Source of the DNA: a virus
Taxonomy: Duplodnaviria; Heunggongvirae; Uroviricota; Caudoviricetes
Strand: one strand, 5' to 3'
Virus record (IMG/VR): IMGVR_UViG_2526164596_000013
DNA length: 50,979 bases
Shown here one piece after another: positions 574 to 46,478 of this stretch. Each line of letters begins with the position of its first letter. Positions within the stretch are counted from its first letter, which is position 1. The translations under genes and the position numbers were made by a program. The notes beneath the pieces are model-generated. The model was not told the DNA's origin, searched no databases, and saw nothing but the letters and a program-made list of their open reading frames with translations.

Positions 574-580
574 AGCACAT

Positions 581-620
581 AAAGCCATCGATATTTCTAT
601 CGATGGCTTTTTCTTTTTAT
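581..620 (+). terminator. rho-independent terminator after acetyltransferase gene
   Basis: inverted repeat aaagccatcgata/tatcgatggcttt with 4-nt loop followed by ttctttttat. Confidence 0.5.
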
Positions 621-4100: not shown

Positions 4101-4223
4101 TGCCAGCGTGTTCACCACCACCGTGGTACTGTTACGTTTTGCTTTCAGCTGGATTGTGCAGTTCTGTACCGGTTTTCCTGTGCCGTCTTTCAGTACACCT
4201 GAAATTTTTACTGCCATATTCAC
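1194..4223 (-). CDS. stf: side tail fibre protein Stf (lambda-like, expanded Ala/Ser/Thr-rich repeat region)
   Basis: 1009-aa ORF; N-terminus [26 protein letters not shown] and C-terminus ...[38 protein letters not shown] match lambda Stf as recalled; overlaps tfa start. Confidence 0.85.
2627..2820 (-). repeat. tandem direct duplication (132-bp period) inside stf
   Basis: near-identical 62-bp cores at 2627-2688 and 2759-2820 (ttggcgttgccgccagcgtttcagacgt[g/a]ctgttggtcgc...), encoding KGI[VI][23 protein letters not shown] twice. Confidence 0.6.
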
Positions 4224-4227
4224 CCCA

Positions 4228-4256
4228 CAAAAAAGCCCGCCTGAACCGGCGGGCTG
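4228..4256 (-). terminator. rho-independent terminator downstream of lom
   Basis: on minus strand hairpin gcccgcc/ggcgggc followed by TTTTTT (plus-strand aaaaaa at 4229-4234). Confidence 0.5.
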
Positions 4257-4281
4257 TCATAACACTGTGTTACCTGGCTAA

Positions 4282-4881
4282 TCAGAATTTATAACCAACA
4301 CCCACGATGAATCCGTCAGTGCGCCAGTCACCACTGCCGGAGCCTTCATAAGCGACATCAATGGCCACGGATTCGGTCGGGTTAAACTGCACGCCAGCTC
4401 CCCACGCCAGAGACGTGTTGCTGTGGCGACCGTCATCACTTCCGGTCAGCACATCGTGCTTTTTCCCCTTGTTGTCAGTTACGCGGAGATAATCCCCGGA
4501 GAAAGTCGACACACGGCTGTAAGCCACACCCGCCATCGCATACGCGCTGAACCATTCATTCACGCGTACAGACGGCCCCGCCATCACGCTGAACCAGCGG
4601 TTACGCACGGAATCTTCATGCCAGCGGGTATCGCTGTAGTGCGTTTTTTGCTCATCCTCAGCATTGGCATAACTGAAGGACGTAATCAGCCCCAGCGCGT
4701 CCGTAAACTCATAACGGTATTTCACGTTAATCCCGTTCAGATTATCGCTGCCGGGAGCGTTCGTACGGGCATGAAGATACCCCGCGCTCAGTGTGGACTG
4801 ATGTTCAGACGCCCATGCAGGCGCACCGGATACGGACAGACAGATGGCTGCGGACAAAATGGCTGCACAAACTTTACGCAT
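4282..4881 (-). CDS. lom: outer-membrane protein Lom (Ail/Lom family)
   Basis: 199-aa ORF with signal peptide MRKVCAAILSAAICLSVSGAPAWA and beta-barrel-like C-terminus ending GYKF; position between J and stf as in lambda. Confidence 0.85.
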   Translation of the reverse strand: MRKVCAAILSAAICLSVSGAPAWASEHQSTLSAGYLHARTNAPGSDNLNGINVKYRYEFTDALGLITSFSYANAEDEQKTHYSDTRWHEDSVRNRWFSVMAGPSVRVNEWFSAYAMAGVAYSRVSTFSGDYLRVTDNKGKKHDVLTGSDDGRHSNTSLAWGAGVQFNPTESVAIDVAYEGSGSGDWRTDGFIVGVGYKF

Positions 4882-4903
4882 AATTACCTCTCGCTTTTCT
4901 GCA

Positions 4904-4930
4904 ATAAAAAAGGCGCCATTTCTGGCGCCC
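4904..4930 (-). terminator. rho-independent terminator downstream of J
   Basis: on minus strand hairpin ggcgcc-agaaat-ggcgcc followed by TTTTTT (plus aaaaaa 4905-4910). Confidence 0.5.
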
Positions 4931-4948
4931 GTATATGGGTTATAAAAT

Positions 4949-7900
4949 TCAGCTGATACTGATGCCTGCGGTGGCTTTCTTCATCACCACAACCAGCAAA
5001 TCGCTGATACTTGCTGTGGGATACCAGTTATTCACCAGCCATGCTGACACCGAAAACTCCAGTGTCATGTGACCGTGACCGGCAGGCATATCAATAACAC
5101 CACTGTAAATCAGCGTATTATCCAGCGCGGTACGGTTATAAATTTCAGCACCGTTTTTCCGCACTATCAGACGGCATGAGGAGTAAATATCAGTATGCTC
5201 TTTCTCATGTTTAGCGCCGCTGAATGCCACCGCCGGAATAACAATCTGCCGGTCAAACGGCTGATCGTCATAAACCCTGACGGTAATGGTCCCTGATGGC
5301 CACCGCTCCGGTGCACGGGAGTCCCGGGGGAAAGCTTTGCCCACTGTTTTAACGAGATCGCCTTCAATCTGGTTGGCGGACAGTTTTCCCAGAACCCGAC
5401 AGTTTTCGTTAATCGTGACGTTGTTGAGCGTCCCGGAGTTCGCATTCACGTTACCGCTGATATCGGCATTTTTCGCCGTCAGCCGCCCGTCCGGTGTCAG
5501 GGAAAATGCCGGAGGATTACCGCCGCTGGTAATGGTGGGAGCCGTCAGGTATTTCAGGAACACTTCGTTCATGAATATCTGATCGCCCTGACCAACAAAC
5601 ATCGGCTTTGTGTTGCCATTCGCAGGATTAATCATCGCAATCCGGTCAGCAGCCAGAAGCACCTGACTCTGCATACCTGCTGGCGTATTCTCAATACCGG
5701 CTCCGATACCCGCAATATAAAGGCGTCCGTCCTTCATCTGCTGCAGTTTCACGGCCCACATGCTGTTCAGGTTATTATTTGTATCAACCTGAACTTTCTG
5801 TATCTGCTGGATTGCCGCGCTCTGATTTTCCAGTTTTTTATTGACGGTCTGCGTGATTTCATTGCTGACATTCGTAATGGACGTCCTGATTTCAGCCAGA
5901 TCAGGCGCAAGCTGACCGTTATCAATCTGTGTCCACAACTCCTGAGCCAGATGGGTTTTCCCTATCTCTCCTTTGAAAAAATCCAGATAGCCGGATGCAT
6001 CATCACTCGGCTGGCCAACAGCCTCCACAAATGCCGATTTGCCAACAGTATTCACACTGCGGATATAAAAATAATAATCATGGCCCGGTTTGATATTGAT
6101 ACTGGCAGCTATCCAGTACAGCGCCGAGCCAAGATAGCGGGCTGCGGTTTCAACCTGCCTGATATCCGCAATCCGCTTTTCCGAGAACCAGAACTCAAAC
6201 TGTACCGTCGGGTCATAAACGGCAAGATGCGGCGTGGCGGTTATCTGAAAATAGCCCGGCGTCAGCTCAATCCGCGACGGTGCTGCCGGTGCGGCAATCC
6301 GGAAGGTGGTGGTGGCAGGTTCACCCTGCTGGCCATAGCTGTTTATCGCCCGCACCGTCAGGGTGTATTCCCCGAGCGGCAGGCCGCTGAAACGGTGCTC
6401 CGTGTCTGCGGTGATGGCGGTGGTCACCAGTCTGGCATCCGTTCCCTTACCACTGGTCAGGCGCAGACTGAAGCGCACACCCTTCACCACCCGCGGCGTG
6501 TCCCATTTCGCCTGCGCCAGATACTGGCCGTCAGCTGCGCTCACCTCCACCGTCAGGTGCTGCACTGCCGGTGGGATGACGCTGTTCAGGGAACCTGACT
6601 GCGGCTCAAAGCGGGCACCGTTATCCACGATGGCTTCTTTTTCCGGTACGTGCTGCACCGCCGTGATGGCAAAGGTGCCGTCCGTGTTTTCCCGGATGGA
6701 GACACAGCGGAACAGGCGACGGCGCAGTGACGGCAGGGAGAGTCCCCACACCCCGTATGTCTCCACACCATCAGGCAGGGTACTGACCTGTATCCGGTCC
6801 GGCGCGGGGTGTTCGGTGATGTCCACACTCACCGGCTTACCGCTGCCGTTAATCAGGTTCACCGTGGCGGCACCGGTCTCCGGAAGTGTCACTTCACGGT
6901 CCAGCGTCAGGGTGCGGGTGGCAGCATCAATGGACAGGACACGTCCGCCGGTCAGAGTCCCGGCATAGTCGTTATCACAGATTTCAATGATGTCACCGGG
7001 TGTGTGCCGCAGCCCCTGAGACCCGAGCGTGAAATCCACCGTCTGCGTTTCCAGCAGTTCAGTCTTTATCACCCACAGTCCGGCACGGTGGGCCTGACCG
7101 CGGCTGGTACAGCCGAACGCGTCCATCTTCAGCAGGTTGCGTCCGTAGCGCAGTATGGCTTCCGGGTCTTCCACCAGTTCCGTGGAGGTCTGCCAGCCGT
7201 TCTGCGGGTCGGTGTAATTCACCTCCACCGCCGTGTGCCGGTCCTTCAGGGCACTGAAGCTGTAGCGGAATCCCACGCCGTTATCATCCACCACCACATC
7301 GCTGTTGGTGTACGGCCACACCACATCCGACGGGCGGTCCTGAACGAACGTCAGCGTCTGACCGTTCCATACCGGCATACAGCGCATCGCAGAGCAGAAA
7401 TCACTGAGAACGTCCCACGCCTTACGCTGTTGTGCCAGGTACGCATTAAAGGTCATCCGCGGCTCTGTCCCCCCGAAACCATCCGGGACCGTCTGGTCGC
7501 AGTACTGCCCGATGGCATACAGCGCCCACTTGTCCACATCCGCCGCCCCCAGACGTTTTCCCATGCCGTAGCGCGGGTGAGTCAGCATGTCCCACAGGCA
7601 CCAGGCCGGGTTGTTGCTGTATGCCGGTTTCAGACTGCCGTCCCAGATACCACTGTACGTGCGTTTTTCCGGGTCATAGTTTGACGGCACCTGGATGATG
7701 CGACCGCGGATATGGTAGTTCACCGTCATCTGCTGGCCGCCGAACTGCTCCGCATCCACCTGCAGCCCCACAATGGCCGTGTTCGGGTAGCACTGTTTCA
7801 CATCGATGATTTCGGTGTATGACGACCACAGCGTCTTATTCTGCAGCTGGTCCGTGGTGCTGTCCGCCGTCTCCCTGACCATCCGGATGTTAAAGGGCCG

Positions 7901-8422
7901 GGGAGGCAGATTATCCAGAATCACCGAGGCCAGGAACTGTGAGGTGGTCTTGCCGTTAATGGTGACGTCCTTTTCCGTCACCCAGCGGCCATTACGCTGT
8001 AACTGAATCAGAATCCGGACAGAGGAAGGATTACGGTCGCCCTTTGACGTGGTCTGCACCAGTGACTGCACCCCGAAGGTAACCCGCAGGCGGTCAATGT
8101 TCGCGGACGTAATGGTGCGCGTCACCGGTTTTGCCTTCGTCACTTCCACGCCCAGTCCGGTTTCAGCTCCGGAGGACTCAAAGCCTTCCGGTGGTGTCTG
8201 CTCCTGCTCCCCGGCGCGCCAGACCGCCGTCACACCGTGTATCACGGGATTGCCGTCCGTGTCCGTCAGTGGGGTTTTGTTCACCAGAATACTCTGCAGT
8301 CCCTTCACCGGACCTTCTATCGGTCCCTCACCAATCGCATCAATCACACTCATCATCTGCGTGGATTTGAGATTATCCTTCGCCTCACGAGGCGTGTGTG
8401 CCTTACCGCCACCTTTTCCCAT
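4949..8422 (-). CDS. J: tail tip / host-specificity protein J
   Basis: 1157-aa ORF; N-terminus [37 protein letters not shown] and long internal stretches match lambda J as recalled. Confidence 0.9.
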
Positions 8423-8627
8423 ACAGCCTTCCCCTGAATAAATTAACCGCCACTTGCCATTCCGTACAGAAGTCGGATATCCTTCGCCCGAAAAGCATGA
8501 AACACATTTCTGCCATGCTAAAGAGAAACCCCGGTATCAGCAGATACCGGGGTTTTCTTTCATGCCCACCGATAATCCTGTTGGTTAAAACCGGTAATGG
8601 CATAAAAATTCTGAATATCTTCACATT

Positions 8628-8760
8628 TTCACACACTGACTGTGGCGCTTATAATTTCGCTGCGTTAGTGTTTTTTTGCCCGAGTAACAAAAACAACTCC
8701 TTAACATTGATCTTCATTTGTCTGTCCCCGCAGCTCCGCGATCACTGCGGGATTTTTTTA
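8628..8760 (+). ncRNA. candidate small RNA: sigma70-like promoter plus intrinsic terminator inside the I-J intergenic insertion
   Basis: TTCACA (8628-8633) - 16 nt - TATAAT (8650-8655); about 70 nt downstream a hairpin ccccgcag/ctgcggg (8726-8751) followed by attttttta; no convincing ORF in between. Confidence 0.3.
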
Positions 8761-8764
8761 TGTT

Positions 8765-9445
8765 TTATCCCTGTCGCCCGATAACCACGACCGTTCCGCC
8801 CCCGCCTTCATCACGGGTGCTGATGTCCTGGGATATACGGCGGGAGCCAACCAGCATTTCCCCGTAAGGCACCGGCATCGGGTTCCCCTGGGCAATCATG
8901 TTATCCAGCGAGGAAAAGTACGTGTTCTGTCTGCCGTTATCCGTTGCGCGGTAATCCGGTGTTTTTGCCTTCGGGGCCAGCATCTGGGCCACACCGCCCA
9001 GAATCATGCTGGCTCCAAGTGAAAACAGCATCGTGGTGGCAGAAAAACCACCGGCTGCCAGGGCTGAACCCCATAACGCCATTGATGCCCCGGCAGTGAA
9101 GAAAGAGCCCACGATGGCTGCCGCCCCCAGCACAATCTGCAGTCCACCCTTTCCGGCCCCGGCCAGTCGCGGCACAATATGGATGACCGTTCCCTCACCC
9201 AGCTGTTCGTGAAGACGGGCGTACACCGCCTCCGGTGCCGTGTCATAACCGGCAATACGTATCTGGTACCAGCCTTCGTTCATCTGACGGCGAAAGCCCG
9301 GCACCTGTAACGACAGCGCCCGGATGGCTTCCGCTGCCGTGTTCACATACAGGCTGAGGCGGCGGCCAAATCGTTGTAAATCCCCGTGAAGGCAGATGCG
9401 TGCCAGTGGCGGTGACGCCAGACAGAATGCGTTCGTCGTTGCCAT
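8765..9445 (-). CDS. I: tail assembly protein I
   Basis: 226-aa ORF; MATTNAF...ARICLHGDLQRFGRR...TYFSSLDNMIAQGN...VVVIGR matches lambda I as recalled. Confidence 0.8.
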   Translation of the reverse strand: MATTNAFCLASPPLARICLHGDLQRFGRRLSLYVNTAAEAIRALSLQVPGFRRQMNEGWYQIRIAGYDTAPEAVYARLHEQLGEGTVIHIVPRLAGAGKGGLQIVLGAAAIVGSFFTAGASMALWGSALAAGGFSATTMLFSLGASMILGGVAQMLAPKAKTPDYRATDNGRQNTYFSSLDNMIAQGNPMPVPYGEMLVGSRRISQDISTRDEGGGGTVVVIGRQG

Positions 9446-10086
9446 TTTTCGGAATACCTCTCCCGTTTACTCAGTTGTTCAGGCAGATGGTGAAGCAGCT
9501 CACCGTTGCCGCAGTAAATGGCGGCATGGTTCGGTACCGAAGCACCAAAGCAGCACAGCAGAATATCGCCCGCCTGTGCAGAGGACAGGGGCACCCGGTA
9601 AAAGCCGGTGACCGCCATATTGTCCAGGTAAAGGTTCTGACCGTTGCGCCACCAGTCATCCTCGCGATGAAAATCCGGCATCTCAGTCCCCGCCAGATGA
9701 TAAGCATCCCGGAACAGCGTGTAACAGTCCGTCACCCCGTGCTCAAAGCGCCGTCCTGTCAGATGTGGCACACAGCGGAATTTGTGAATGTCACCCCGGC
9801 AGACCAGCCACCAGGGCAGTGCGCTTTTTATCTGCAGCCGCCGGTCAGCCTCGCTCAGCCAGGGCAGCCCACCGGGATGACTGTGGACCAGTGCCACAAT
9901 CTCCCCCTGCATCTCTGCCCGCAGCCAGTCTTCCGGTGCGATACGAAAATACGCCTCCGGCTCTGCAGAAATATTCACACAAGGGATATACCACTCCCCC
10001 TCCGGCGTGCTTATCACGAAGCCACACGACTCCGCAGGCGCACACCGCCGGGCATGCGCCAGAATCGCTGATTCAGTCTGTGTCAT
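9343..10086 (-). CDS. K: tail assembly protein K (NlpC/P60-MPN family); 3' end overlaps I in another frame
   Basis: start chosen at MTQTESAILAHARRCAPAESCGF (ATG at 10086) inside the longer ORF 9343-10347; HSHPGG motif and catalytic Cys region present; 3' extent uncertain. Confidence 0.65.
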   Translation of the reverse strand: MTQTESAILAHARRCAPAESCGFVISTPEGEWYIPCVNISAEPEAYFRIAPEDWLRAEMQGEIVALVHSHPGGLPWLSEADRRLQIKSALPWWLVCRGDIHKFRCVPHLTGRRFEHGVTDCYTLFRDAYHLAGTEMPDFHREDDWWRNGQNLYLDNMAVTGFYRVPLSSAQAGDILLCCFGASVPNHAAIYCGNGELLHHLPEQLSKRERYSEKWQRRTHSVWRHRHWHASAFTGIYNDLAAASACM

Positions 10087-10096
10087 AAACCGGGAT

Positions 10097-10795
10097 TTAC
10101 TGCGAAAGTTTATTAATGGAAAGGAAACCGCCAAAATTGCCGACATTCCTGCGCAGTTCACACCCGCGCATGCACTTGCTGCATCTGTCCTTACGGATAT
10201 CCGTGGTGGGGTTGTCGAACTCATCCGCCACCGCAGGACCGTTATACCCGCATTCATCTCCCCGGTAATCCCACATACAGGTGTTCGCCAGCATGATGCG
10301 ACCGGGAAACAGCGCCCCGTCCGTCTCGGTCGGTGTAGCCAGCACAAACGAGGCCGTCATGGCTGTCAGCTGCGACATCTGCTCCACCACCCAGCGGTCA
10401 CTCAGCTCCTGCTCCGGGTCCGCCTCCGGATTGCCCGCAACGAAATTCACCGCATCCAGAAAACGGGCATACACCCGGCGGCGGACCACCGTGGCCCCCA
10501 CCAGACTCTGCAGGTCTTCCGCCATCCCGGTGACCAGACCGAACAGATTGGACACCGTCAGCGACGGTCTGGCACTGCTGCCCCGGCCGTTCATCTCAAA
10601 GCCGCTGCCGTCAATCGGGTATGCCTCATACTTACGCCCCTGCCAGGTGACCGGCTCCCCTTTTTCATTCAGCTCATTACAGAAAAAATACCGCTCACCA
10701 CCCTGTACCGTCAGGTCGATTTCCCAGAGTACCACCCGCGGTGACTGCTCTGACTTAACCGACTCGTTCAGACTTTCTTCGCGAATATCCTGCAT
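10097..10795 (-). CDS. L: minor tail protein L
   Basis: 232-aa ORF, same length and position as lambda L; Cys-rich C-terminus. Confidence 0.75.
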   Translation of the reverse strand: MQDIREESLNESVKSEQSPRVVLWEIDLTVQGGERYFFCNELNEKGEPVTWQGRKYEAYPIDGSGFEMNGRGSSARPSLTVSNLFGLVTGMAEDLQSLVGATVVRRRVYARFLDAVNFVAGNPEADPEQELSDRWVVEQMSQLTAMTASFVLATPTETDGALFPGRIMLANTCMWDYRGDECGYNGPAVADEFDNPTTDIRKDRCSKCMRGCELRRNVGNFGGFLSINKLSQ

Positions 10796-26429: not shown

Positions 26430-26963
26430 TTATCTGTCGATTCCCCAGCACGCCAGCGCGCTCTCCTGGTCACGACGGGATACCTGACCATAACAGTTAT
26501 TTGAGCGGATACGGCAGTCTCTGCCACCGTCCTTAATCCACCAGCGAATCGCCTCACACGCTCCCCTGCGGTCACCAGCATTCAGCCGCTTATAAAACGT
26601 CGACGGGAAACACTTACCGGGGCCAATGTTATAGGGACAGAATGACGCTATACCCGCTTTCTGTGGTTCGGTCAGTGGAACTTTAATATTGCGCTCCACC
26701 CATGCCAGCGCCTTATCCCGTTCAATGGCATTAACCTGGTCGCATTTTTCCTTCGACAGTTTCATGCCCGGAATAACAGGTTTACCATCCACCATTGTGG
26801 CACCGCGGCAGATGGTCCAGATACCCGCACCATCACGGTATGCCGTTGTGTGGTTACCTTCTTTTTCATCCAGAAACTGGTCGAGAATATCAGGCGCAGG
26901 CGCACCGATGGCAATCAACGCCAGAACGGCAGCCGACAGGCCATATTTGATTTTGGTGTTCAT
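26430..26963 (-). CDS. R: SAR endolysin (phage-lysozyme family, phage 21 R-like)
   Basis: 177-aa ORF; N-terminal hydrophobic signal-anchor LSAAVLALIAIGAPAP followed by lysozyme core (EGNHTTAYRDGAGIWTICRGAT...); downstream of a pinholin. Confidence 0.8.
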   Translation of the reverse strand: MNTKIKYGLSAAVLALIAIGAPAPDILDQFLDEKEGNHTTAYRDGAGIWTICRGATMVDGKPVIPGMKLSKEKCDQVNAIERDKALAWVERNIKVPLTEPQKAGIASFCPYNIGPGKCFPSTFYKRLNAGDRRGACEAIRWWIKDGGRDCRIRSNNCYGQVSRRDQESALACWGIDR

Positions 26964-27091: not shown

Positions 27092-27406
27092 ATGCATAAC
27101 GATCAACATAATTATGATTTATGCCTGCAAGCCATAAATGAGCGGGTAAAATCAGAGTGCCTCTTACTCCTCCCACAAGAACACGATGCAGTAAAATCCA
27201 TTCAGGCTGAGCCGTATGGACATCTCACACCTGTGACTCTCGGCATTATCGCCAGAGCATTAACACAGCCCATGCTTATGCGTATTAAGACCAATATAAA
27301 TAACTGGTTGAATGAAGAATTAAGCTACCTTGATTGTGAGTGGGACAATCATTACGCAAAAACACAAAAAGAACGCATCTTCAGTCGATTATCCAGCAAC
27401 AGATAA
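27092..27406 (+). CDS. hypothetical protein (104 aa), oriented against the late operon
   Basis: ATG 27092 preceded by GAGGA SD at 7 nt; no recognised domain; convergent with 27416-28222. Confidence 0.45.
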   Translation: MHNDQHNYDLCLQAINERVKSECLLLLPQEHDAVKSIQAEPYGHLTPVTLGIIARALTQPMLMRIKTNINNWLNEELSYLDCEWDNHYAKTQKERIFSRLSSNR

Positions 27407-27415
27407 CGAGCCACC

Positions 27416-28222
27416 TTATATACGCCCTTTCAGATAAGTCATCCCCGGCTGCATCCAGTCAACAGGTGCTTTCTTAAAGGGCGTATTATCAAAATCACGC
27501 AGAAGAGCCTCCAGCACAACTGCATCATTGTCAGCACCACTGGCCATCATTTCAATCTCAGCTGCTACCTGCAGATATCCCATGCAACGACCAATGCGCT
27601 TCATCAGCCCCTGCTTTTTATTGTTCTTCAGGTAATCAATGGCAAATTCAATGAGCGCCTCACTATGCTGGTGCGATGGCGGTGTTAATTTCCCATTTTC
27701 TGAGATGGTTATTTTCCCGCCATCTCCGTATACAACAAAGGATGGCCGGTTACACTCCCATTCCTGATCTTTATCAGGTGCAGACGCAATAAAATAACGT
27801 TTATTTCCTTCCTCTCCGGCACTTTTAACCGTAATGGAGTACTCAGACTGCAGACAAGACGCCTCTTTTTCTGACCGCAGTGTTGACGGCGGCATCTTCA
27901 GAGAACCAGTAATTCTTCCCGGTAGCTTTCCTTTGTAGGTTATCAACACATCCTGCGCCTCTAAAATTATGGGGCGCTTTTCCGGCAACGGTTCGTTCCC
28001 TTCACATAACCCGGCAGCAACATCCATGAAAAACTGCTTCGCCTGCTTTTTCGCCTCAGCTTCGTAAAACTCCAGCGTGGCACCTTCAGTACGGTCAAGA
28101 CTAATCGCCACATCTGGCAACAACAGTGACGGATACCCACCAATTTCCAGTGCCACAGTAACAGTAATCTTATCCGGATAATTATTTATCCCTTTAACAC
28201 CCAGTTCGTATTTTTTCTTCAT
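27416..28222 (-). CDS. hypothetical protein (268 aa) inserted between holin and endolysin
   Basis: ATG 28222 lies 4 nt after the holin stop with GGGGGGAG SD inside the holin 3' end; no recognised domain. Confidence 0.55.
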   Translation of the reverse strand: MKKKYELGVKGINNYPDKITVTVALEIGGYPSLLLPDVAISLDRTEGATLEFYEAEAKKQAKQFFMDVAAGLCEGNEPLPEKRPIILEAQDVLITYKGKLPGRITGSLKMPPSTLRSEKEASCLQSEYSITVKSAGEEGNKRYFIASAPDKDQEWECNRPSFVVYGDGGKITISENGKLTPPSHQHSEALIEFAIDYLKNNKKQGLMKRIGRCMGYLQVAAEIEMMASGADNDAVVLEALLRDFDNTPFKKAPVDWMQPGMTYLKGRI

Positions 28223-28226
28223 CGCT

Positions 28227-28442
28227 TTACTCCCCCCGCGCCGCCTTACGACGGTCCTCTCTGATTTTGAAATACAGGTTAGTCAGATATGTCAGCAGCC
28301 CAAACAGCAGACTCCCCAGCACGCCTATTGCCGCCCACTGAGACGGGGAAACCCTGTCCAGCAACTGCAGGAACCAGTAGCCCGTTCCCACCGCTGACGT
28401 GGTGTATGACACACCTGTTGTGATTTTTTCCATCTGGTACAT
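28227..28442 (-). CDS. S: pinholin (phage 21 S21-like) with dual-start MYQM motif
   Basis: [71 protein letters not shown] closely resembles S21 (two TM domains, Met1/Met4 dual start, charged C-terminus); ORF extends upstream to 28547. Confidence 0.85.
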
Positions 28443-28591
28443 ACCCCGTCTCCCGTTATCCGGAAGCTGACAACAATAAAAAAGCCACCAGTTAACTACT
28501 GATGGCTCTGATAACTCATGCAGGCGTCTCAGACGATCCACTGACACTACCGGTGAGTTTAACGATACCTTCCATTTGACTGGCTCACTTT

Positions 28592-30445
28592 TTATGATGA
28601 TGCCGGTGCATTTATCTCCAGCACCAGACTTTCTATCTCAACGCCATACGTTGCATTTTTGGTAATATCCGTCAGCGTCAGTGCATTTAGTCCCACTGCC
28701 AGACTGTCTTTTATGGCCTGGAATGCCGGGCCAGCCACTCCATTCAGTTTCGGAGTAACCGTGGCACTGCCGGCGGTGAACACCAGTTCCAGCGTTTGCC
28801 AGTCATTACTGTAATTCCCGAACTCGCCCAACTTTGTGTTTCCTGCTTTCTTGTGATGCATCAGATTCAGTTTGCCGTCTGTGGTCTGGGTGAAGAACGA
28901 CATCAGGAACGGGTTACCAGTCCCGGTCATCGCCACGACGTCAGGTAACGCTACATCGGTATACAGATAAATTCCCAGGCCGAACTGGTTGTTGGTCAGT
29001 GCGCCTGACAGTCGAAACTTACAGCTCAGTCTGCCACCCCGTGTCAGCAGGGAGACTGCGTCATCCACCGGGCGCGTCAGGGACCAGGCTTTATTGCTCT
29101 GCTTGGTGATCTTAAATACACCCTCTGACAACTGAATTCCGCCATTCTTAATGCTCCAGCCCTGCGCAGCAGCGTCTCCGGCTGTCGGCAACAGGGAGAT
29201 TGTGCGTACGGATGCATCTTCAGACGGCCCCGATGGCGTGTCGCCGCCGGGCGAGGGTTTGATTTCCGGTGCCTTACCACTGATGAAGGCTGAGGTGCGC
29301 CCGGCTGCGTTCAGAATAGCGGTTGCCATACGATCCGGAATAATGCTCCTGCGCGCCCATGAACTGAAATGTGTCGGGCGGTTTGATGATACCTGGTTTC
29401 CATTCGTTCTCGATGCCGCACCGTAATATCCTGATGCCGGAATATCCGGATCTTCTGCCGGTGCGTTAGTGGCGGTATTGACGCCGTTACCGTCTGTCAT
29501 GAAGGGCACAAAATAAACGCCCTCACTCTCCCTGTTTTTATACCCGCCGTACACGGTGTCGTACTGGGTAGCGTATGTATTTTTCCAGTAATACGTCGTG
29601 TCACCACAAATCCACGGCACATTTACAGCACTGCCACCATGACACTGCGCGTTAAACACAGTGAGGTCAGCACGAAACTGCTTCAGCATGGCTGTAAACA
29701 GCGCAGGTTGCTGTGCGTAGGTGGCGGCGTTCATGTCAAACTCTCCCTGCATCCAGCACACCGCCAGCAACACATTTTTCGGGTTCTTCTGTAATGCAGC
29801 TTTAGTGCGCGCAATCAGGTCCTGATATAACGGTTTACCCACACCCCAGCGTGCCGAATCCTGGCTGGCCCCCGCGTCCGCACTGAATGTCCCCTCCGCG
29901 CCCTTGGTGAATGCCGAACCACCACGACAGCATGGTACCAGCAGGATCCCCGCGTTATTCGGGATATACGGGAGCAGTTTTTTGGCAATATGTAAGCCCT
30001 GGCCGACACAGCCGTACTGCCCTTTGCTCAGGTCTGCCTTCGGATGATTCAGCGTACTCATATCCTGCACATCATGCAGACAGTGGTCAGCCGGGATGAT
30101 GTCGTTATACGTACAACTCTCTCCACCCGGAGTTACCGTGCTGCGGCGCGCCAGCTGTTTAATGCGCGGATCCGGAGCATCGTAAGAATCCGGTAACGGA
30201 AGCCCTTCACCGTAGGCCATGCCGTTGGACTGTCCGGCAAGCACAACCACGTAGAACCAGTCCGGCTCAGATGAAGGGCCGACCTGTGGATCTCCTTCAA
30301 TAGCCACCGCCTGCATCAGTGTGTACGGCGTAATGGCAACCGGTCCGCCATATGGCTGCCAGCCCTCTTTCAGTTTGTGTGTCAGCTTTTCCGCAAGGTC
30401 TGACGGCGACGCCGCCCTGACAACATCATAGTGTTTAAATGCCAT
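28592..30445 (-). CDS. NanS-p-like sialate O-acetylesterase (N-terminal DUF1737-like region + SASA esterase), Stx-phage-type moron
   Basis: 617-aa ORF starting [38 protein letters not shown]..., GGSAF/GQSN-type esterase motifs; same position (between tRNA cluster and S) as the large esterase ORF of Stx phages; GGGAGGA SD. Confidence 0.7.
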
Positions 30446-30892
30446 GAATCCTCCCGGCCGGGATAATATTGTGAGTAAAATGAGGAGCGGGCTGAAGTCC
30501 GGAAGTTACAGGACAATGGCAGAAGAGAGACAATAGCCCGCAATACGAAAAAGGCCGCGCTATTGCGCAGAGTGATTACTGTCGGATATTATTCGCCAGC
30601 TGAAATATTACTTCACGTTTTGTTGTTTATTCCTTGCCGCCCGCGTCTCCCTGCGCGGGATTTTTTTGTCCATAAGAAAGCCCCTCCGGAGAGGGCTGGA
30701 GAGTGGCGCTATGTGCCATTGCATGGTGCCGGGTGCCTCCCGGTGAATTCAGTACCAGCACCTGAATCCGCGATTATCCCATATACCTACTCGCTGATTG
30801 CCCCTCCGCACAGGGGGATTCACCATGCCAGTTTCTTTTAACAAACTCCCCGCAAAACAGACAACTGTCAACCGTCTGAATTGTGAGACATT

Positions 30893-30920
30893 TAAAAAAA
30901 AGGCCCGCAAAAGCGAGCCA
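30893..30920 (-). terminator. rho-independent terminator immediately 3' of tRNA-Arg(UCU)
   Basis: minus strand hairpin ggctcgc-tttt-gcgggcc followed by TTTTTTTT. Confidence 0.5.
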
Positions 30921-30933
30921 GGGAAAATAAGTG

Positions 30934-31010
30934 TGGCGCGTTGTACTGGATTCGAACCAGTGACCGATTGCTTAGAAGGCAATTGCTCTGTCCGGCTGAG
31001 CTAACAACGC
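30934..31010 (-). tRNA. argO: tRNA-Arg (anticodon UCU)
   Basis: rc gives GCGTTGTTAGCTCAGCCGGACAGAGCAATTGCCTTCTAAGCAATCGGTCACTGGTTCGAATCCAGTACAACGCGCCA; cloverleaf with 7-bp acceptor, anticodon loop CTTCTAA, encoded CCA. Confidence 0.85.
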
Positions 31011-31023
31011 AGGGTACAGATAA

Positions 31024-31100
31024 TGGACCGCCATCGAGGACTCGAACCCCGCGCAACCAGCTTCGAAGGCTGGCGCTCTATCCTGATGAGCTAATGGCGG
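31024..31100 (-). tRNA. argN: tRNA-Arg (anticodon UCG)
   Basis: rc gives CCGCCATTAGCTCATCAGGATAGAGCGCCAGCCTTCGAAGCTGGTTGCGCGGGGTTCGAGTCCTCGATGGCGGTCCA; anticodon loop CTTCGAA; acceptor stem CCGCCAT/ATGGCGG; encoded CCA. Confidence 0.75.
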
Positions 31101-31107
31101 TATGTGA

Positions 31108-31179
31108 TGGTGGCCCTTGCTGGATTTGAACCAGCGACCTGGCGATTATGAGTCGCTCTCACCACTGAGCTAAAGGGCC
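31108..31179 (-). tRNA. ileZ: tRNA-like gene with CAU anticodon (Ile2/Met-type), atypically short
   Basis: rc gives GGCCCTTTAGCTCAGTGGTGAGAGCGACTCATAATCGCCAGGTCGCTGGTTCAAATCCAGCAAGGGCCACCA (72 nt); good acceptor and T arms, loop CTCATAA, but the anticodon stem 5' side appears about 4 nt short. Confidence 0.55.
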
Positions 31180-31340
31180 GGGAGCCGCATAATAACGACG
31201 CGTAATTAATTCTTCAATATCATCCGTTCTGGCTGACTAAATCCTGTACTTCCCGAACCGTCTGCTCAAAACATTCAGTCTCCAGCTCAACGCCAATTGC
31301 ACGACGCCCGAGCGCCAGTGCTGCTTTGACGCTACGGACA

Positions 31341-31371
31341 TAAAAAAGCCAGCCACTGGGGGAGGCTGGCG
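31341..31371 (-). terminator. candidate intrinsic terminator on minus strand upstream of the tRNA cluster
   Basis: minus strand hairpin gccagcc-tcccccagt-ggctggc followed by TTTTTT. Confidence 0.4.
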
Positions 31372-31550
31372 AAACTCGTAGAGCAAAAGTGTTGTTACAC
31401 TAACTTCGTCACAGGGTTATCCTGCAATACTCAAAATACACAATATTTACAAAACTAATAGTATACAAGGCGATCTTTAAGATTTTGTTATAAATTATTG
31501 CCTTTCTCCTCTTTCCATGAGCTTTCTGGGTAGCCACAGAATTCCGGGTA

Positions 31551-31577
31551 CAGAAAAACCCGCTCAGCGGCGGGTTT
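31551..31577 (-). terminator. second candidate intrinsic terminator on minus strand
   Basis: hairpin aacccgc-cgctga-gcgggtt followed by TTTTTCT on minus strand. Confidence 0.3.
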
Positions 31578-32004
31578 AAGCTGTGTGACGAAGTAACCAC
31601 TCTTAACAGCATAACCAATTTTTTACGTACGTAAACCACTAAATGATATTTGCGAGAATGCTACCGAGTATTGAAAACACCACTACAAATACATAAGCAA
31701 ATCTCAACAAATAACCAACAAATAATTTCCAGTGTTATTTTTAGCCTGTTTAAATTGAACCTTCAAATTATAGAGCACTTATAAATAACAGCCGTTAATA
31801 TAAATTGGCTAATAGATTTATTTTTATTCAGCCAAGAGCCATGAATAGGATTCGATAGAAAAAAGTTCAGATAAAAATAGAGATCTACTTCACAAATCAA
31901 ACGAGAAACCAAAACTTACATCTTGAAATAATCACATTGATTAGATGAATATTTATCGCGCAGTGACATCATTTTTTAATAATAGTTCAAAAAAAGGGCT
32001 CACG

Positions 32005-33087
32005 ATGAAAAAATTAACAGTGGCAATTTCTGCTGTAGCTGCATCAGTACTGATGGCGATGTCTGCTCAGGCAGCTGAAATTTATAATAAAGACAGTAAC
32101 AAGCTGGATCTGTACGGGAAAGTTAATGCTAAGCACTATTTCTCCTCTAATGATGCAGATGATGGTGATACTACTTATGCCCGTCTTGGCTTCAAAGGTG
32201 AAACCCAAATCAACGATCAACTGACTGGTTTCGGTCAGTGGGAATATGAATTCAAAGGCAACCGCGCTGAATCTCAAGGTTCCTCCAAAGATAAAACCCG
32301 TCTTGCCTTCGCTGGCCTGAAATTCGGTGACTACGGCTCAATCGATTACGGCCGTAACTACGGTGTAGCATACGACATCGGTGCGTGGACTGACGTTCTG
32401 CCAGAATTCGGTGGCGATACCTGGACCCAAACAGATGTGTTCATGACTGGTCGCACCACTGGTGTTGCAACTTATCGTAACAACGACTTCTTTGGTCTGG
32501 TTGATGGTCTGAACTTTGCTGCTCAGTATCAGGGTAAAAATGACCGCACTGACGTAACTGAAGCTAATGGTGATGGTTTCGGTTTCTCCACTACTTATGA
32601 GTATGAAGGATTCGGTGTAGGTGCAACCTATGCTAAATCTGACCGCACTAATAATCAGGTTATCTACGGTAACAACAGCCTGAATGCATCTGGTCAAAAT
32701 GCTGAAGTATGGGCAGCTGGTCTGAAATATGATGCGAACAACATCTATCTGGCTACCACCTATTCTGAAACCCAGAACATGACTGTTTTTGGTAATAACC
32801 ATATTGCCAACAAAGCACAAAACTTCGAAGTAGTTGCACAATATCAGTTCGACTTCGGTCTGCGTCCGTCCGTTGCTTACCTGCAATCTAAAGGAAAAGA
32901 CTTGGGTGCGTGGGGTGATCAGGACCTGGTTGAATATATTGATGTAGGTGCAACCTATTACTTCAACAAAAATATGTCCACTTTTGTTGATTACAAAATC
33001 AACCTGATTGATAAGAGCGATTTCACGAAAGCATCTGGCGTTGCTACCGATGATATCGTTGCTGTAGGTATGGTTTACCAGTTCTAA
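32005..33087 (+). CDS. outer-membrane general porin (OmpC/NmpC/Lc-like), phage-borne moron
   Basis: signal peptide [23 protein letters not shown] then [17 protein letters not shown]... and C-terminal ...VAVGMVYQF typical of enterobacterial trimeric porins; opposite strand to the late genes, between Q and the lysis genes as nmpC is in DLP12. Confidence 0.85.
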
Positions 33088-33102
33088 TTTGATTACTAAA
33101 AG

Positions 33103-33158
33103 ATATGTTGCGGGAGGCTTTGCCTCCCCAACATATAAGTGGCTCCCTCAAGCCACTT
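33103..33158. terminator. two adjacent hairpins immediately 3' of the porin gene
   Basis: inverted repeats atatgttgcgggaggc/gcctccccaacatat (33103-33136) and aagtggct/agccactt (33137-33158); T-rich flank on minus strand. Confidence 0.4.
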
Positions 33159-33223
33159 CCTTTAGGAGCACAACCTTGCTTCTAACTATATAAACCTTCT
33201 GTTATATATTACCCTTTATTTTT

Positions 33224-33258
33224 GGGGGCGTTGCAACGCCCCATTTTTAATAATTTTT
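33224..33258 (+). terminator. rho-independent terminator (plus strand)
   Basis: perfect palindrome gggggcgttgcaacgcccc followed by atttttaataattttt. Confidence 0.5.
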
Positions 33259-33275
33259 AGTAAACAATTGGCATA

Positions 33276-33659
33276 TTAATTAGAGTTATTAACAACGATA
33301 TCCATCTCTAACCGGATATCTAATGCCATTAACATCCCTTCAATTATGCCCTCAGCCTTCTGTAACCTTTTCCCGATATAACCATCAGAGCAGCAATGCT
33401 TACCTGCCAGTGACATGAATGTCATACCGACTACATAATAATCTACTAATAAATCGTGCAAATCGCTGTTGTTCTTTTTCAGACGGGCCATGCACCCGCA
33501 AATAATCATCGCGTCATCGTCACAACATTGCGGGCGAGATTTTACTTTTGAAGTAATTAATCCCTTAAAACCGGCGGCAATGGACGACCAGGTCACATCT
33601 TCATGATTATTTGCCGCCCACGCTCCCCAGCGTTCGAGAACCATCTGAATATCACGCAT
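33276..33659 (-). CDS. Q: late-gene antiterminator Q (QuuD-type)
   Basis: 127 aa from [24 protein letters not shown]... with Cys-rich putative zinc-binding segment ([20 protein letters not shown]); matches the DLP12 QuuD family as recalled. Confidence 0.8.
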
Positions 33660-33676
33660 CAACTTTCTCCACAAAA

Positions 33677-38617: not shown

Positions 38618-39468
38618 GGGCGAACCTCCTTGTCAGAACCATTCAGCCTGGAATCAACAAGTGCAGCGCCAAAAACAGCATCACCAACACGGTCGTACAG
38701 TTTGCTAGCCAGCGGAGATTCAACGGCCTTAAGCATTGGATAAAGCTGGCTTGTCCAGATTTGATGGATTTCACGCAAATGCAGGTATACGCCTCTGGCG
38801 TTTCGTGCGACAGCTGACATATCAACCGCGTCAGCACCAGATAAATTCTTCTCCATCTGGTTAAAGGCGTTGATGTATGCCTCTTTGAACTGGGCAGCAC
38901 GTTTACCAGTGAAGCCCATGGCAAGAAACGCAAAACCGTCGCGGGTGATTTGGTAACAAGGGAGTTTGCGGCCTGATGCGTCGGTGTATTCACTTAACAC
39001 AAAATTGTGTTCAGTAAATTCAGCGGAACATTCGAGGTTTCTAATTCTATCTAAAACCCGCTCATGCCGTTTAGTAAAGTAATTAGCTACTGCAAGAGAT
39101 GTGGTGACAACGCGACCATTGATAATCGTGATTTCAGGGCGAGATTGGGTTGGGAGAGTAGTCATGGTGACAGCCCCTATGTTGAATTCAATGAACTCAC
39201 CACCAAGGCTTTCCACGACCATATAGGTGGTGAGACGTACAGGGGTGGAAATACCGGTCAACATAGAACCCGGCCCAACCGAAGTTGGCCCTGCACGCCC
39301 CACCATAATTTGGGCGTAACGATGCTCATGACACGAAAAAACCGCATGAGCGCGGTTGTGCTCTATATTGAATTTCGGGTTTCCACGCCCGGCACCCGCT
39401 TTATAAGGTGCAGAGACAGTGTAACGTCCCGAAATTGCAGAATCAATATTTGGTCTTGAAATGATCAT
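38614..39468 (-). CDS. phage regulatory protein, Rha-family domain in C-terminal half
   Basis: segment VVTTSLAVANYFTKRHERVLDRIRNLE...FVLSEYTDASGRKLPCYQITRDGFAFLAMGFTGKRAAQFKEAYINAF resembles the Rha phage-regulator domain as recalled; N-terminal 110 aa unassigned. Confidence 0.5.
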   Translation of the reverse strand: MIISRPNIDSAISGRYTVSAPYKAGAGRGNPKFNIEHNRAHAVFSCHEHRYAQIMVGRAGPTSVGPGSMLTGISTPVRLTTYMVVESLGGEFIEFNIGAVTMTTLPTQSRPEITIINGRVVTTSLAVANYFTKRHERVLDRIRNLECSAEFTEHNFVLSEYTDASGRKLPCYQITRDGFAFLAMGFTGKRAAQFKEAYINAFNQMEKNLSGADAVDMSAVARNARGVYLHLREIHQIWTSQLYPMLKAVESPLASKLYDRVGDAVFGAALVDSRLNGSDKEVRP

Positions 39469-43620: not shown

Positions 43621-43856
43621 ATATCATGCAATACGATGAATTCCAGGCTGAAGCAACAGCCAATGGTATACGAACTGGCAGTATGACGATTGATTATCAC
43701 GACGCCATACGTCGTCTGGATGCCGGAGAATTCGATACTCCTAATGTGCGAGGTTTACGTATCCTTCAGTGTCTGGCGCAAGCCGACGAAGCAGGATTAC
43801 TGGGTAAACTTCCGGTTGAGATGAAGGTTGCTCAGTGGCGATGGTTGGATTTGCCC

Positions 43857-44762
43857 CTATATTTCCAGACATCTGTTATCACTTAACCCATTACAAGCCC
43901 GCTGCCGCAGATATTCCCGTGGCGAGCGATAACCCAGCGCACTATGCGGATGCCATTCGTTATAATGCTCGAACGCCTCTGCAAGGTTCTTTGCTGCCGT
44001 TAACCCGTCTGGTTTGGGCATGATACTGATGTAGTCACGCTTTATCGTTTTCACGAAGCTCTCTGCTATTCCGTTACTCTCCGGACTCCGCACCGCCGTG
44101 TTCTTCGGTTCAAGTCCCAACATCCGGGCGAACTGGCGTGTTTCATTAGCCCGGTAGCATGAACCATTATCCGTCAGCCACTCCACTGGAGACGACGGAA
44201 GATCGTTGCCGAAGCGGCGTTCCACCGCTCCCAGCATGACGTCCTGTACTGTTTCACTGTTGAAGCCGCCGGTAGTCACCGCCCAGTGCAGTGCCTCACG
44301 ATCACAGCAGTCCAGCGCGAACGTGACACGCAGTCTCTCTCCGTTATCACAGCAGAACTCGAACCCGTCAGAGCACCATCGCTGATTGCTTTCTTTCACG
44401 GCCACTCTGCCTGTATGTGCCCGTTTCGATGGCGGTACAGCAGGTTTTCGCTCAAGCAACAGCGCATTCTGGCGCATGATCCGGTAAACACGTTTGGCAT
44501 TGATCGCAGGCATACCATCAAGTTCTGCCTGTCTGCGAAGCAGCGCCCATACCCGACGATAACCATACGTGGGCAGCTCTCCGATAACATGGTGTATACG
44601 GAGAAGCACATCCGTATCATCAGTGTGACGACTGCGGCGGCTATCCATCCAGTCATCGGTTCGTCTGAGAATGACGTGCAACTGCGCACGCGACACCCGG
44701 AGACAACGGCTGACTAAGCTTACTCCCCATCCCCGGGCAATAAGGGCGCGTGCGCTATCCAC
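43857..44762 (-). CDS. insD: IS2 transposase OrfB (DDE integrase core)
   Basis: 301-aa ORF matching IS2 InsD as recalled. Confidence 0.85.
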
Positions 44763-45085
44763 TTTTTTGCCCGTCCATATTCAACGGCTTCTTTGAGGAG
44801 TTCATTTTCCATCGTTTTCTTGCCGAGCAGGCGCTGGAGTTCTTTAATCTGCTTCATGGCGGCAACAAGTTCAGAGGCAGGAACAACCTGTTCTCCGGCG
44901 GCGACAGCGGTAAGACTTCCTTCCTGGTATTGCTTACGCCAGAGAAATAACTGGCTGGCTGCTACACCATGTTGCCGGGCAACGAGAGAGACCGTCATCC
45001 CCGGTTCAAAGCTCTGCTGAACAATTGCGATCTTTTCCTGTGTGGTACGCCGTCTGCGTTTCTCCGGCCCTAAGACATCAATCAT
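44720..45085 (-). CDS. insC: IS2 OrfA (HTH transposase subunit)
   Basis: [56 protein letters not shown]... matches IS2 InsC as recalled; overlaps orfB as expected for a -1 frameshift fusion. Confidence 0.85.
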
Positions 45086-45553
45086 CTGTTCTCCAATGAC
45101 TAGTCTAAAAACTAGTATTAAGACTATCACTTATTTAAGTGATACTGGTTGTCTGGAGATTCAGGGGGCCAGTCTAATGGTTGTATGTGACGACATTCAT
45201 CAACGAAGAAGAAGACAAGAACGGCACAATTGATATCTTGAATGAACACGGAACAACTGAACACGCCGTGGTATATAACGGGATGTATGGGTTTATGACG
45301 ATATATCCCGGCCCCATTCGATTTGCCTTACAACAGTATATTGAATGGAATTTAATTCAAAAATACGGCGAAGCTGAAGGAATGGGAAGAGCGCTGTTTC
45401 TTTATCAGAAAATGCTCACTACTTCCCCTGATAAAGGTTTCATTCTTTCAGATATGGGTCGAGAAGGGCTTGAAATCCTTCTGGATGAAATTATTAACGA
45501 AATGAATACTCATGGCATGCAATCCGAAACAGATATTAAGTAAAAGGGACCAC

Positions 45554-45775
45554 ATGACCGTTATCGAGCATATCCAGGAAAATCCAGATTGCAGTAGAGA
45601 AGATATATCCCTCGCACTTGGAAGAAGCGCAACTTCTATCAGTAATGAATTATCACGGTTATTGTGGAATGGGTTAATAGTACGAACTGGAGAAAAAAAC
45701 AAAATGATTCTGTACTGCGTAAACAATCTGCCGTTTGGATACAGCAATCCCCTAAGTGTTATGTTCAACCAGTGA
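45554..45775 (+). CDS. hypothetical small winged-helix-like protein
   Basis: ATG 45554 with AAGGGA SD just after the stop of the IS2-disrupted ORF; fold assignment is only an impression. Confidence 0.4.
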   Translation: MTVIEHIQENPDCSREDISLALGRSATSISNELSRLLWNGLIVRTGEKNKMILYCVNNLPFGYSNPLSVMFNQ

Positions 45776-45818
45776 TAGTGATGTTCCGACAGGAGAGAGC
45801 AGAGAAAGGGGAATCAGC

Positions 45819-46478
45819 ATGAAATTTTCCAAATTTTCTGAGTTGGTGAATCGTATTTTGTCCAACAACCACAGCCATCGTCGCGATATGGATGTAACGA
45901 TCGTTGTTCATTCGCCTGGCAGCATTGGTTCAACACCCTCAGTTGAAGTTCAGTCAATTCACGCTGGTTTTGATTGGGATTCCGGGAAAGTGCTGATTTT
46001 CCCAGCACAGCCACTGACCACTCTAACACCAGAACAGATTACTGATATTACTGATAGTGTGCGCAAAGGTCAGTCCTGGCACGCATATCAGGAATACAAG
46101 AAGCATAAAGAGCAGTTGGAAAAATTATCGATTGAACTTGATGCCGCAAAACAGCGCATTGCAGAGCTGGAGGGTAATTTCACGGCGCTGGCAGCGGAGA
46201 ATGCGGGGCTAAAGGCGATATGTGATGACCGTCGCAGGTTCATCATGAATGGGGTGCAGATGGGTTATATCAAGGTGCCAGCAGCGGAAACAGATCCAGA
46301 CCTTGAGACAATTCGCATTGCTATATCACCACAAAAGCCCATTCCAGCCACCGATGCTTTCCTGGCTGAAGTACGGGCGCAGGGCGTGGAGATGTTTGCG
46401 GAGTGTGCATACACGCTTGAACATCATGATCACGCAGTAGCCTTCGCCGCTGAGCTTCGCAAAGGAGGCAACCAGTGA
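45819..46478 (+). CDS. Ead/Ea22-like protein, paralog 1
   Basis: ATG 45819 with AAAGGGGA SD; coiled-coil segment ...ALAAENAGLKA... and C-terminus ...PATDAFLAEVRAQGVE...AAELRKGGNQ shared with the next gene. Confidence 0.5.
   Translation: MKFSKFSELVNRILSNNHSHRRDMDVTIVVHSPGSIGSTPSVEVQSIHAGFDWDSGKVLIFPAQPLTTLTPEQITDITDSVRKGQSWHAYQEYKKHKEQLEKLSIELDAAKQRIAELEGNFTALAAENAGLKAICDDRRRFIMNGVQMGYIKVPAAETDPDLETIRIAISPQKPIPATDAFLAEVRAQGVEMFAECAYTLEHHDHAVAFAAELRKGGNQ

Follow-up and report, generated by a model that had tools for sequence, protein, structure and literature searches.

An apparently unoccupied cargo site and a convergent small-RNA pair in the late region of a stx-negative lambdoid prophage

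When a phage late region has the gene order of Shiga toxin (Stx)-converting phages and no toxin genes, has a toxin cassette been lost from it, or is the site simply unoccupied? The question is raised by positions 30446-30933 of a 50,979-nt viral sequence (Caudoviricetes; IMG/VR record IMGVR_UViG_2526164596_000013), referred to here at its full length as the window, where 488 bp separate a cluster of three tRNA genes from the start codon of a gene for a NanS-p-like sialate O-acetylesterase. An earlier note, made from the sequence alone, had drawn attention to this slot (given as about 490 bp) and to the absence of stx genes, and offered two explanations: a stx-negative relative of the Stx phages, or a phage that had lost the toxin cassette. 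The comparisons described here favor the first. The interval is best read as the leader of the late operon in an ordinary lambdoid prophage that is negative for stx, with an empty cargo slot and a conserved convergent pair of small RNA (sRNA) genes, to which a probability of about 0.9 is assigned. The empty state is very probably a common E. coli allele and not the outcome of a recent deletion in this prophage; the data fit an unoccupied allele. The arrangement itself has already been described: it is present in prophage Sp4 of the reference EHEC genome, E. coli O157:H7 Sakai, and a study of 2014 mapped its RNAs there.

The empty junction and its distribution

Read along the minus strand, Q comes first and is followed by a porin gene that is itself encoded on the plus strand; then come tRNA-CAU, tRNA-Arg(UCG), tRNA-Arg(UCU), the 488-bp spacer, the NanS-p-like esterase gene, and a holin gene (Table 1). 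ARAGORN, Rfam, and Pfam placed all of these late-region features where the earlier note had put them and on the minus strand, the plus-strand orientation of the porin gene being a detail added here. The order CAU, UCG, UCU and homology to phage 933W identify the tRNA genes as the phage ileZ-argN-argO cluster. An Stx-converting phage carries stxA and stxB in its late region, and the window has neither. Searches of all 50,979 bases by tblastn with Stx1A/B and Stx2A/B and by blastn with both toxin cassettes gave only chance-level matches (best E = 0.57 and 0.065, respectively), as the earlier note had anticipated.

The likeness to Stx phages that the note had seen is real. The layout is collinear with that of three Stx2 phages which are classified differently: 933W (genus Traversvirus), Stx2_14040 (no genus assigned), and Stx2_EC3283 (genus Oslovirus). 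All three have stx2AB between the tRNA block and the esterase gene. Homology with them extends through the pR' region, the tRNAs, and the terminator after argO to window position 30893, breaks there, and resumes at 30890, the two parts being separated by exactly 1,332 bp that carry stx2A and stx2B; for 933W, window 31636-30893 matches positions 2166-2912 of the compared record at 87% identity. Across the junction the window reads GGGCC-T8-AAATGTC-TCACAATTCAG. This comparison shows cleanly that stx2AB is one discrete 1,332-bp cargo module between the post-tRNA terminator and an STnc100-type sRNA gene. The Stx1 phage YYZ-2008 is without the tRNA cluster, its stx1 cassette replacing the stretch that matches window 31333-30570, yet, as in the Stx2 phages, an STnc100 copy lies just downstream of its toxin genes.

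The complete late order in 933W is Q, pR', ileZ-argN-argO, stx2AB, STnc100/EcOnc27, AsxR, L0105/nanS-p, and S-R-Rz. The window shares with it a collinear order of modules, the terminator that precedes the cargo slot, and the STnc100 family that follows it. It is unlike 933W in having no stx2AB, a convergent RNA that is not AsxR, an esterase of just 54% amino acid identity (to L0105), a porin gene separating Q from pR', and lambda-like long-tail structural genes rather than the 933W-type short-tail set.

Two further observations concern the slot itself. In each of the three Stx2 phages, the sequence ATCTG stands on both sides of the 1,332-bp stx2AB cassette as a 5-bp direct repeat (2909-2925 and 4236-4252 in the 933W record). 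The probability of such a repeat arising by chance is estimated at about 0.1; it is too short, and is no evidence of a transposition-like insertion. In phage vB_EcoS-640R1 (positions 2541-4434 of the compared record), the slot lies between a CAU tRNA gene and a truncated DUF1737 gene and holds other cargo, including a gene on the opposite strand for an IraM-like anti-adapter, which shows that cargo other than stx is exchanged at this position.

The empty junction is widespread. A 131-nt probe for it was covered over at least 80% of its length in 1,016 of 5,426 complete E. coli genomes, and the 1-kb region was contiguous in 985 genomes. The equivalent probe running from argO into stx2A found the stx2-occupied junction in 592 of the same 5,426. 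The earlier note had likened this architecture to that of Stx-converting phages; it is not specific to them, the empty form being the commoner of the two. A pattern scan of IMG/VR returned at least 120 contigs with the empty junction, and contig counts given here refer to these 120 sampled. All but two of them (118) have the short junction, consisting of the T-run, AAATGTC or a single-base variant of it, and TCACAATTCAG, with T-runs of varying length, and 51 match the window spacer exactly. A literature search for stx-negative lambdoid phages with ileZ and argO returned nothing.

Sakai Sp4 has ileZ1-argN1-argO1, a 489-bp spacer, and the esterase gene ECs_1088, without stx. Its spacer differs from that of the window at six of 491 aligned positions (about 98.8% identity), one of them in the terminator stem of the STnc100-type gene, and over window 31182-28580 the identity is 95.9%. 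There are also differences outside the spacer: genes for a CAAX protease and an AraC-family protein precede the tRNAs in Sp4, where the window has the porin gene and a methylase remnant; IS629 follows the esterase gene in Sp4; and Sp4 ileZ1 keeps 4 nt that the ileZ-like tRNA of the window has lost. A near-identical prophage lies beside yecE in E. coli O111:H21 strain 15A (NZ_CP077477), with 99.98% identity over the aligned stretches (window 1-10301 lay outside the comparison). The only difference within the aligned span is at 43853-46165, where NZ_CP077477 has IS903B and the window has other DNA. The flanks of the junction are about 98.8% identical to Sp4 and 99.9% identical to the strain 15A prophage, versus 87-93% (left) and 72-93% (right) to the Stx phages, and no closely related Stx phage was found in the comparisons.

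Similar sites are found in free-standing phage records. The stx-negative phages vB_EcoP_phi296, TL-2011a, the PPwrbA phages, Nil3, and Lahn2 carry the tRNA cluster, then the sRNA region and NanS, and are free of toxin genes; they align over the empty site at 88-95% identity. phi296, which has an esterase allele of the 933W type, is collinear with the window across the site except for 28 extra bp (a 44-nt junction spacer, versus 16 nt in the window). The Nil3 and Lahn2 records are partial; that of Nil3 follows the window without a break over the 443 bp beyond argO. The earlier note had named two signs that would tell against its proposal, an interval unlike stx-flanking DNA and an identical arrangement in related non-Stx prophages. 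Such prophages do share the identical arrangement; the interval, on the other hand, is similar to stx-flanking DNA.

Tree et al. (2014; PMC4104026) described a site of this kind, a "moron insertion site" located 3' of pR' and bearing convergent sRNAs. Their occupied example is Sp5, with stx2, and further cases are Sp3, Sp4, Sp9, Sp10, Sp11, Sp15, and Sp17. The window slot corresponds in position, downstream of Q and of a putative pR'/tR' block homologous to that of 933W, and it has a convergent pair of sRNA genes between the cargo position and the downstream open reading frame (ORF).

Small RNA genes in the spacer

The spacer had been described in the earlier note as non-coding sequence with hairpins. 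No protein-coding genes were found in it, and a terminator scan gave six terminator-like hairpins in 30300-31700 (1.7 +/- 1.4 in shuffled sequences), so that much of the description stands, but two small-RNA genes are present as well.

The first, on the minus strand, matches the STnc100 family over the full length of the model (positions 1-206 of 206; 129.5 bits with a cut-off of 47, E = 3e-28) and is a homologue of EcOnc05 in Sp4 and of EcOnc27/sRNA103 in Sp5/933W. A member of this family lies 75 bp 3' of stx2B in 933W and 3' of stx1B in YYZ-2008. Compared with the 933W copy, the window allele is diverged and is without ~15 nt of the central hairpin; it is in the same place upstream of the esterase gene, not adjoining stx. 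STnc100 has been linked to EcOnc27 and PasD (PMC12711010; preprint 10.64898/2026.05.13.724894), and in Sakai northerns EcOnc27 ran at ~235/247 nt and EcOnc05 at ~222 nt (Tree et al., 2014, PMC4104026). Table S2 of the same paper lists Hfq-bound EcOnc05 at ~222 nt and EcOnc08/EcOnc21 at ~271 nt. Folding of the window copy was uninformative (z = -0.69), and the evidence for the spacer RNAs comes from the covariance model and homology, not from thermodynamic folding.

The second gene faces the first from the plus strand. A promoter-like site (TTGCGC at 30563-30568, an 18-nt spacer, and TATTAT at 30587-30592) precedes a predicted RNA of approximately 30600-30667, with the 5' end placed from this site; a strong terminator at 30640-30659 and a run of T7 close the gene. 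The fold of this 68-nt RNA is marginal (z = -1.98). Its counterpart in Sakai was found by Hfq cross-linking and analysis of cDNA (Hfq-CRAC), which gave peaks on Sp4 for EcOnc05, on the plus strand within the STnc100 copy, and for EcOnc08/EcOnc21, on the minus strand over the convergent gene. The EcOnc08 peak (Sakai 1179938-1180010, minus strand) covers a sequence near-identical to the plus-strand RNA of the window. The EcOnc08-type 3' end was present in 63 of the 120 contigs.

Better known RNAs occupy the equivalent place in Stx phages: AsxR in 933W and AgvB in YYZ-2008 (RF02703 and RF02702) are also on the opposite strand, immediately after STnc100. The window RNA has the same position, orientation, TTGCGC -35 box, 18-nt spacer, and intrinsic terminator, but its body is GU-rich and unrelated, without the CACAACA GcvB-target motif of the AsxR/AgvB 5' region. 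Membership in these families was rejected, with no Rfam match at E <= 10 and a different 3' region; the conserved stretch of ~42 nt (GTATCTCATGC..TTGCCCGAACCCACTCGGGCTTTTT) by which the AsxR/AgvB/EcOnc03 group, variable in its 5' seed, is defined is absent from the window RNA. EcOnc33 (Sp6) and the Sp3 sRNAs were also tried as counterparts and rejected, as their loci do not contain its sequence.

A full-text literature search for the EcOnc08-type sequence gave no match, and no published function was found. This RNA is the least-explored element of the region, widespread and with evidence of Hfq binding in Sakai. That it is an unstudied regulator, perhaps a third class of prophage anti-sRNA/sRNA or a cis-antisense regulator of nanS-p, is a tentative suggestion at best. 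Control of nanS-p translation in cis could apply if the ~271-nt Sakai form starts within the esterase gene.

Transcription of the late region and alternative readings

By analogy with 933W, the tRNAs in a lysogen would be transcribed from pT and end at the putative terminator at 30894-30919, and the STnc100/EcOnc05-type RNA and the opposite-strand EcOnc08-type RNA would be made as Hfq-binding sRNAs. On induction, Q would load onto RNA polymerase at the 933W-like pR'/qut block (~31608-31636), and the antiterminated transcript would pass tR', the tRNAs, the post-tRNA terminator, and the sRNA region to enter the esterase and lysis genes. In Stx2 phages the toxin operon comes directly behind the post-tRNA terminator (at window 30887-30893), a placement that would make toxin synthesis Q-dependent in those phages; here the same slot is empty.

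The signals on which this scheme draws are recognizable in the window. The 933W annotation over the stretch matching window 31636-31342 comprises pR', qut, and two terminators, and the window has pR'-like hexamers (TTTACG at 31630-31635 and TATGCT at 31608-31613), a tR' terminator at 31554-31576, and a second terminator at 31342-31370. The pT-like site ends 10 nt before the first tRNA, in the same place as the feature annotated in 933W as "pT; putative tRNA promoter." The post-tRNA terminator folds at -13.8 kcal/mol (z = -4.15) and is homologous to the [quoted passage not shown] of the 933W annotation. The 933W homology starts exactly at the pR' -35, inside the final 14 nt of Q in 933W, and as a consequence the late promoter of the window is ~1.6 kb away from its own Q gene. 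The porin gene lies between Q and the pR'-like block and appears to be outside the late transcript. Directly 3' of Q, at 33088-33275, there is another stretch that is promoter-like and rich in hairpins.

Several points weigh against reading the interval as a working late leader with an empty slot. Promoter use, read-through by Q, and sRNA production are carried over from the 933W annotation and the Sakai Sp4 data. In Sakai northerns EcOnc08/21 is ~271 nt, versus ~68 nt predicted from the proximal promoter-like site. The STnc100 copy scores 129.5 bits, versus 207.7 in 933W, with an internal deletion and a bulged terminator stem, and its promoter is ill-defined: a consensus TTGACA at 30866-30871 is without a good -10 hexamer. 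The ileZ-like tRNA, with its 4-nt deletion, may have lost its function. Finally, on junction sequence alone, the empty state may be ancestral or may go back to one ancient deletion that later spread.

The tRNA genes themselves are otherwise well conserved, with Rfam E-values from 4e-10 to 2e-13. The argN-like gene is identical to 933W argN at 74 of 77 nt and the argO-like gene to 933W argO at 76 of 77, the sole difference being A37 for G37. The ileZ-like gene is 72 rather than 76 nt long and is identical to 933W ileZ apart from the missing 4 nt, one GAGC unit of the tandem GAGCGAGC found where the D stem meets the anticodon stem in 933W and Sakai ileZ1. The Rfam score drops from 72.5 to 58.2 bits, and ARAGORN and the Prokaryotic Genome Annotation Pipeline (PGAP) still call a tRNA; in NZ_CP077477 the identical gene is called tRNA-Ile by PGAP. 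The same deletion is present in just 2 of 99 IMG/VR empty-site loci containing this tRNA. Judging by its sequence, the tRNA may be crippled or have a non-canonical D arm in place of the usual 4-bp D stem.

Of the alternatives, the one that survives best is that the region belongs to a decayed cryptic prophage and that none of its elements works, and it is still improbable. Signs of decay are the methylase pseudogene remnant, the deletion in the ileZ-like tRNA, a YdfR-family gene that is truncated or fused, extra DNA between holin and lysozyme, and an STnc100 score lower than in 933W. The methylase remnant, however, is also present in 933W, a functional phage, and the two Arg tRNAs differ little from their 933W counterparts. 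Q, the esterase, the holin, and the lysozyme are intact ORFs with full-length domain matches, and in the near-identical strain 15A prophage, aligned over most of the window, integrase, terminase, head, and tail genes are all annotated as intact.

Loss of the stxAB cassette by deletion from a former Stx-converting phage, the second of the earlier note's proposals, fares worse and is considered highly unlikely. In its favor, DNA on both sides of the junction is homologous to that around stx2, the homology breaks precisely where the cassette begins and ends, and the ATCTG repeat could in principle mediate a deletion. There is no stx remnant in the window, however, and when the interval was aligned with flanking DNA from the three Stx2 phages and the one Stx1 phage, a check for deletion scars that the note had suggested, none was seen: the borders are clean, with just the 5-bp repeat. 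A match of that length near two breakpoints has the chance probability of ~0.1 given above, and the single-copy AAATGTC of the window is not the product expected from an ATCTG-mediated deletion of a 933W-type locus. Independent deletions should give heterogeneous junctions, whereas that of the sampled contigs is near-uniform (118 of 120), and the empty junction is present in 1,016 genomes. The flanks, as noted, are also closer to stx-negative prophages (98.8-99.9%) than to Stx phages.

A protein-coding role for the 488-bp spacer, as a 92-amino acid ORF with a TTG start (30563-30841, plus strand) or a fragment annotated by PGAP as "hypothetical protein," is the least credible reading of all: although the spacer has ORFs of 44-92 amino acids, NZ_CP077477 has a partial hypothetical coding sequence there, and small ORFs were annotated over the stretch by PHANOTATE and by the depositors of YYZ-2008, PGAP marks its own feature as incomplete (pseudo), the 92-amino acid ORF is frameshifted into two overlapping pieces in most related gap sequences, including the commonest variant, and contains a 1-nt indel by which the window and Sp4 differ, no coding sequence is annotated there in Sakai Sp4, and the stretch is accounted for by the full-length sRNA covariance match and the Hfq-bound RNAs of Sakai.

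Neighboring genes and meaning of the locus

The coordinates of the late-region features are collected in Table 1. The Q protein has 78-81% amino acid identity to those of 933W and YYZ-2008, and the identical gene in NZ_CP077477 was named quuD by PGAP; the porin counterpart in that prophage is annotated as porin OmpC. The methyltransferase remnant is homologous to the 3' end of an intact methylase gene in Stx2_14040. In the esterase the DUF1737, SASA, and DUF6645 domains each score above the Pfam cut-offs, giving the domain composition of NanS-p, and there is a GQSN motif at residue 71. It is 93.5% identical in amino acid sequence to Sakai Sp4 ECs_1088 and 90% identical to the YYZ-2008 esterase. 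Activity as a 9-O-acetyl esterase on Neu5,9Ac2 has been shown for the NanS-p alleles of EDL933 and O104:H4 (PMC8065619), and nanS-p genes are reported from non-Stx prophages (PMC10462455; PMC8065619). The esterase leader has 91% identity to the segment upstream of the esterase gene in 933W and YYZ-2008, and its folding energy is uninformative (z = -1.21).

Downstream, the 149-bp spacer between the esterase and holin genes (28443-28591, minus strand) ends, immediately ahead of the holin start, in a hairpin that resembles a terminator (GCCATCAGTAGTTAACTGGTGGC and then T6). Other prophages have the sRNAs PasA/PasC at this position; no Rfam family matched the spacer here. The holin counterpart in NZ_CP077477 is 216 bp long (PGAP). 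Between holin and lysozyme there are an ORF of 268 amino acids (27416-28222, minus strand), in which a DUF1327/YdfR N-terminus is fused to an unrelated tail and whose equivalent was called truncated by PGAP, and an opposite-strand ORF of 104 amino acids (27092-27406, plus strand). Together, 27092-28222 looks like another small cargo insertion, within the lysis cassette.

Rfam matches were also found elsewhere in the window. A C4 antisense RNA (39223-39310, minus strand, 82.4 bits) and isrK (39335-39411, minus strand, 61.6 bits) constitute an antirepressor-control RNA module of the P1/P7 type, which is also present in phage phi296. IS009 is matched at full length (654-851, minus strand, 219.1 bits) near the tail end of the window.

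Table 1. Features of the late region, in the order of minus-strand transcription (window coordinates).
Feature	Position	Strand	Evidence
Late antiterminator Q (QuuD/933W-Q type)	33276..33674	minus	Pfam PF06530, E = 4e-53
OmpC/NmpC-like porin gene	31945..33087	plus	Pfam Porin_1, E = 3.7e-153; convergent with Q
Putative 933W-type late promoter block	31342..31636	minus	Homology to 933W, the only basis for its function
DNA methyltransferase 3' remnant (pseudogene)	31221..31334	minus	PGAP on NZ_CP077477 equivalent: "site-specific DNA-methyltransferase, incomplete"
pT-like tRNA-cluster promoter, TTGAAG-17-TATTAT	31189..31217	minus	Promoter scan, 9/12 matches
ileZ-like tRNA (CAU), 72 nt	31108..31179	minus	ARAGORN; Rfam tRNA, 58.2 bits
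argN-like tRNA-Arg (UCG)	31024..31100	minus	ARAGORN; Rfam tRNA, 56.0 bits
argO-like tRNA-Arg (UCU)	30934..31010	minus	ARAGORN; Rfam tRNA, 70.1 bits
Intrinsic terminator 3' of tRNA cluster, GGCTCGC-TTTT-GCGGGCC then T8	30894..30919	minus	Terminator scan
Unoccupied cargo ("moron") junction, AAATGTC	30887..30893	minus	Homology break versus three Stx2 phages
STnc100-family sRNA gene	30668..30857	minus	Rfam RF02076; terminator hairpin 30679-30697
Convergent small-RNA gene (EcOnc08 type)	30563..30667	plus	Terminator scan, folding, homology
Esterase leader: hairpin plus T-run 30555-30570; ribosome binding site GGAGG 30450-30454	30446..30575	minus	Terminator scan, motif coordinates
NanS-p-like sialate O-acetylesterase, 617 amino acids	28592..30445	minus	DUF1737 + SASA + DUF6645 domains (Pfam)
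Class II (P21-type) holin S, 71 amino acids	28227..28442	minus	Pfam PF04971, E = 3.7e-32; ATG at 28442
Phage lysozyme	26430-26963		Downstream of holin

As a discovery the locus carries little weight; its practical use is for annotation. The spacer deserves annotation as two sRNA genes, in place of non-coding DNA or small hypothetical ORFs, and a tRNA cluster and nanS-p gene downstream of Q are a marker neither of an Stx phage nor of toxin loss.

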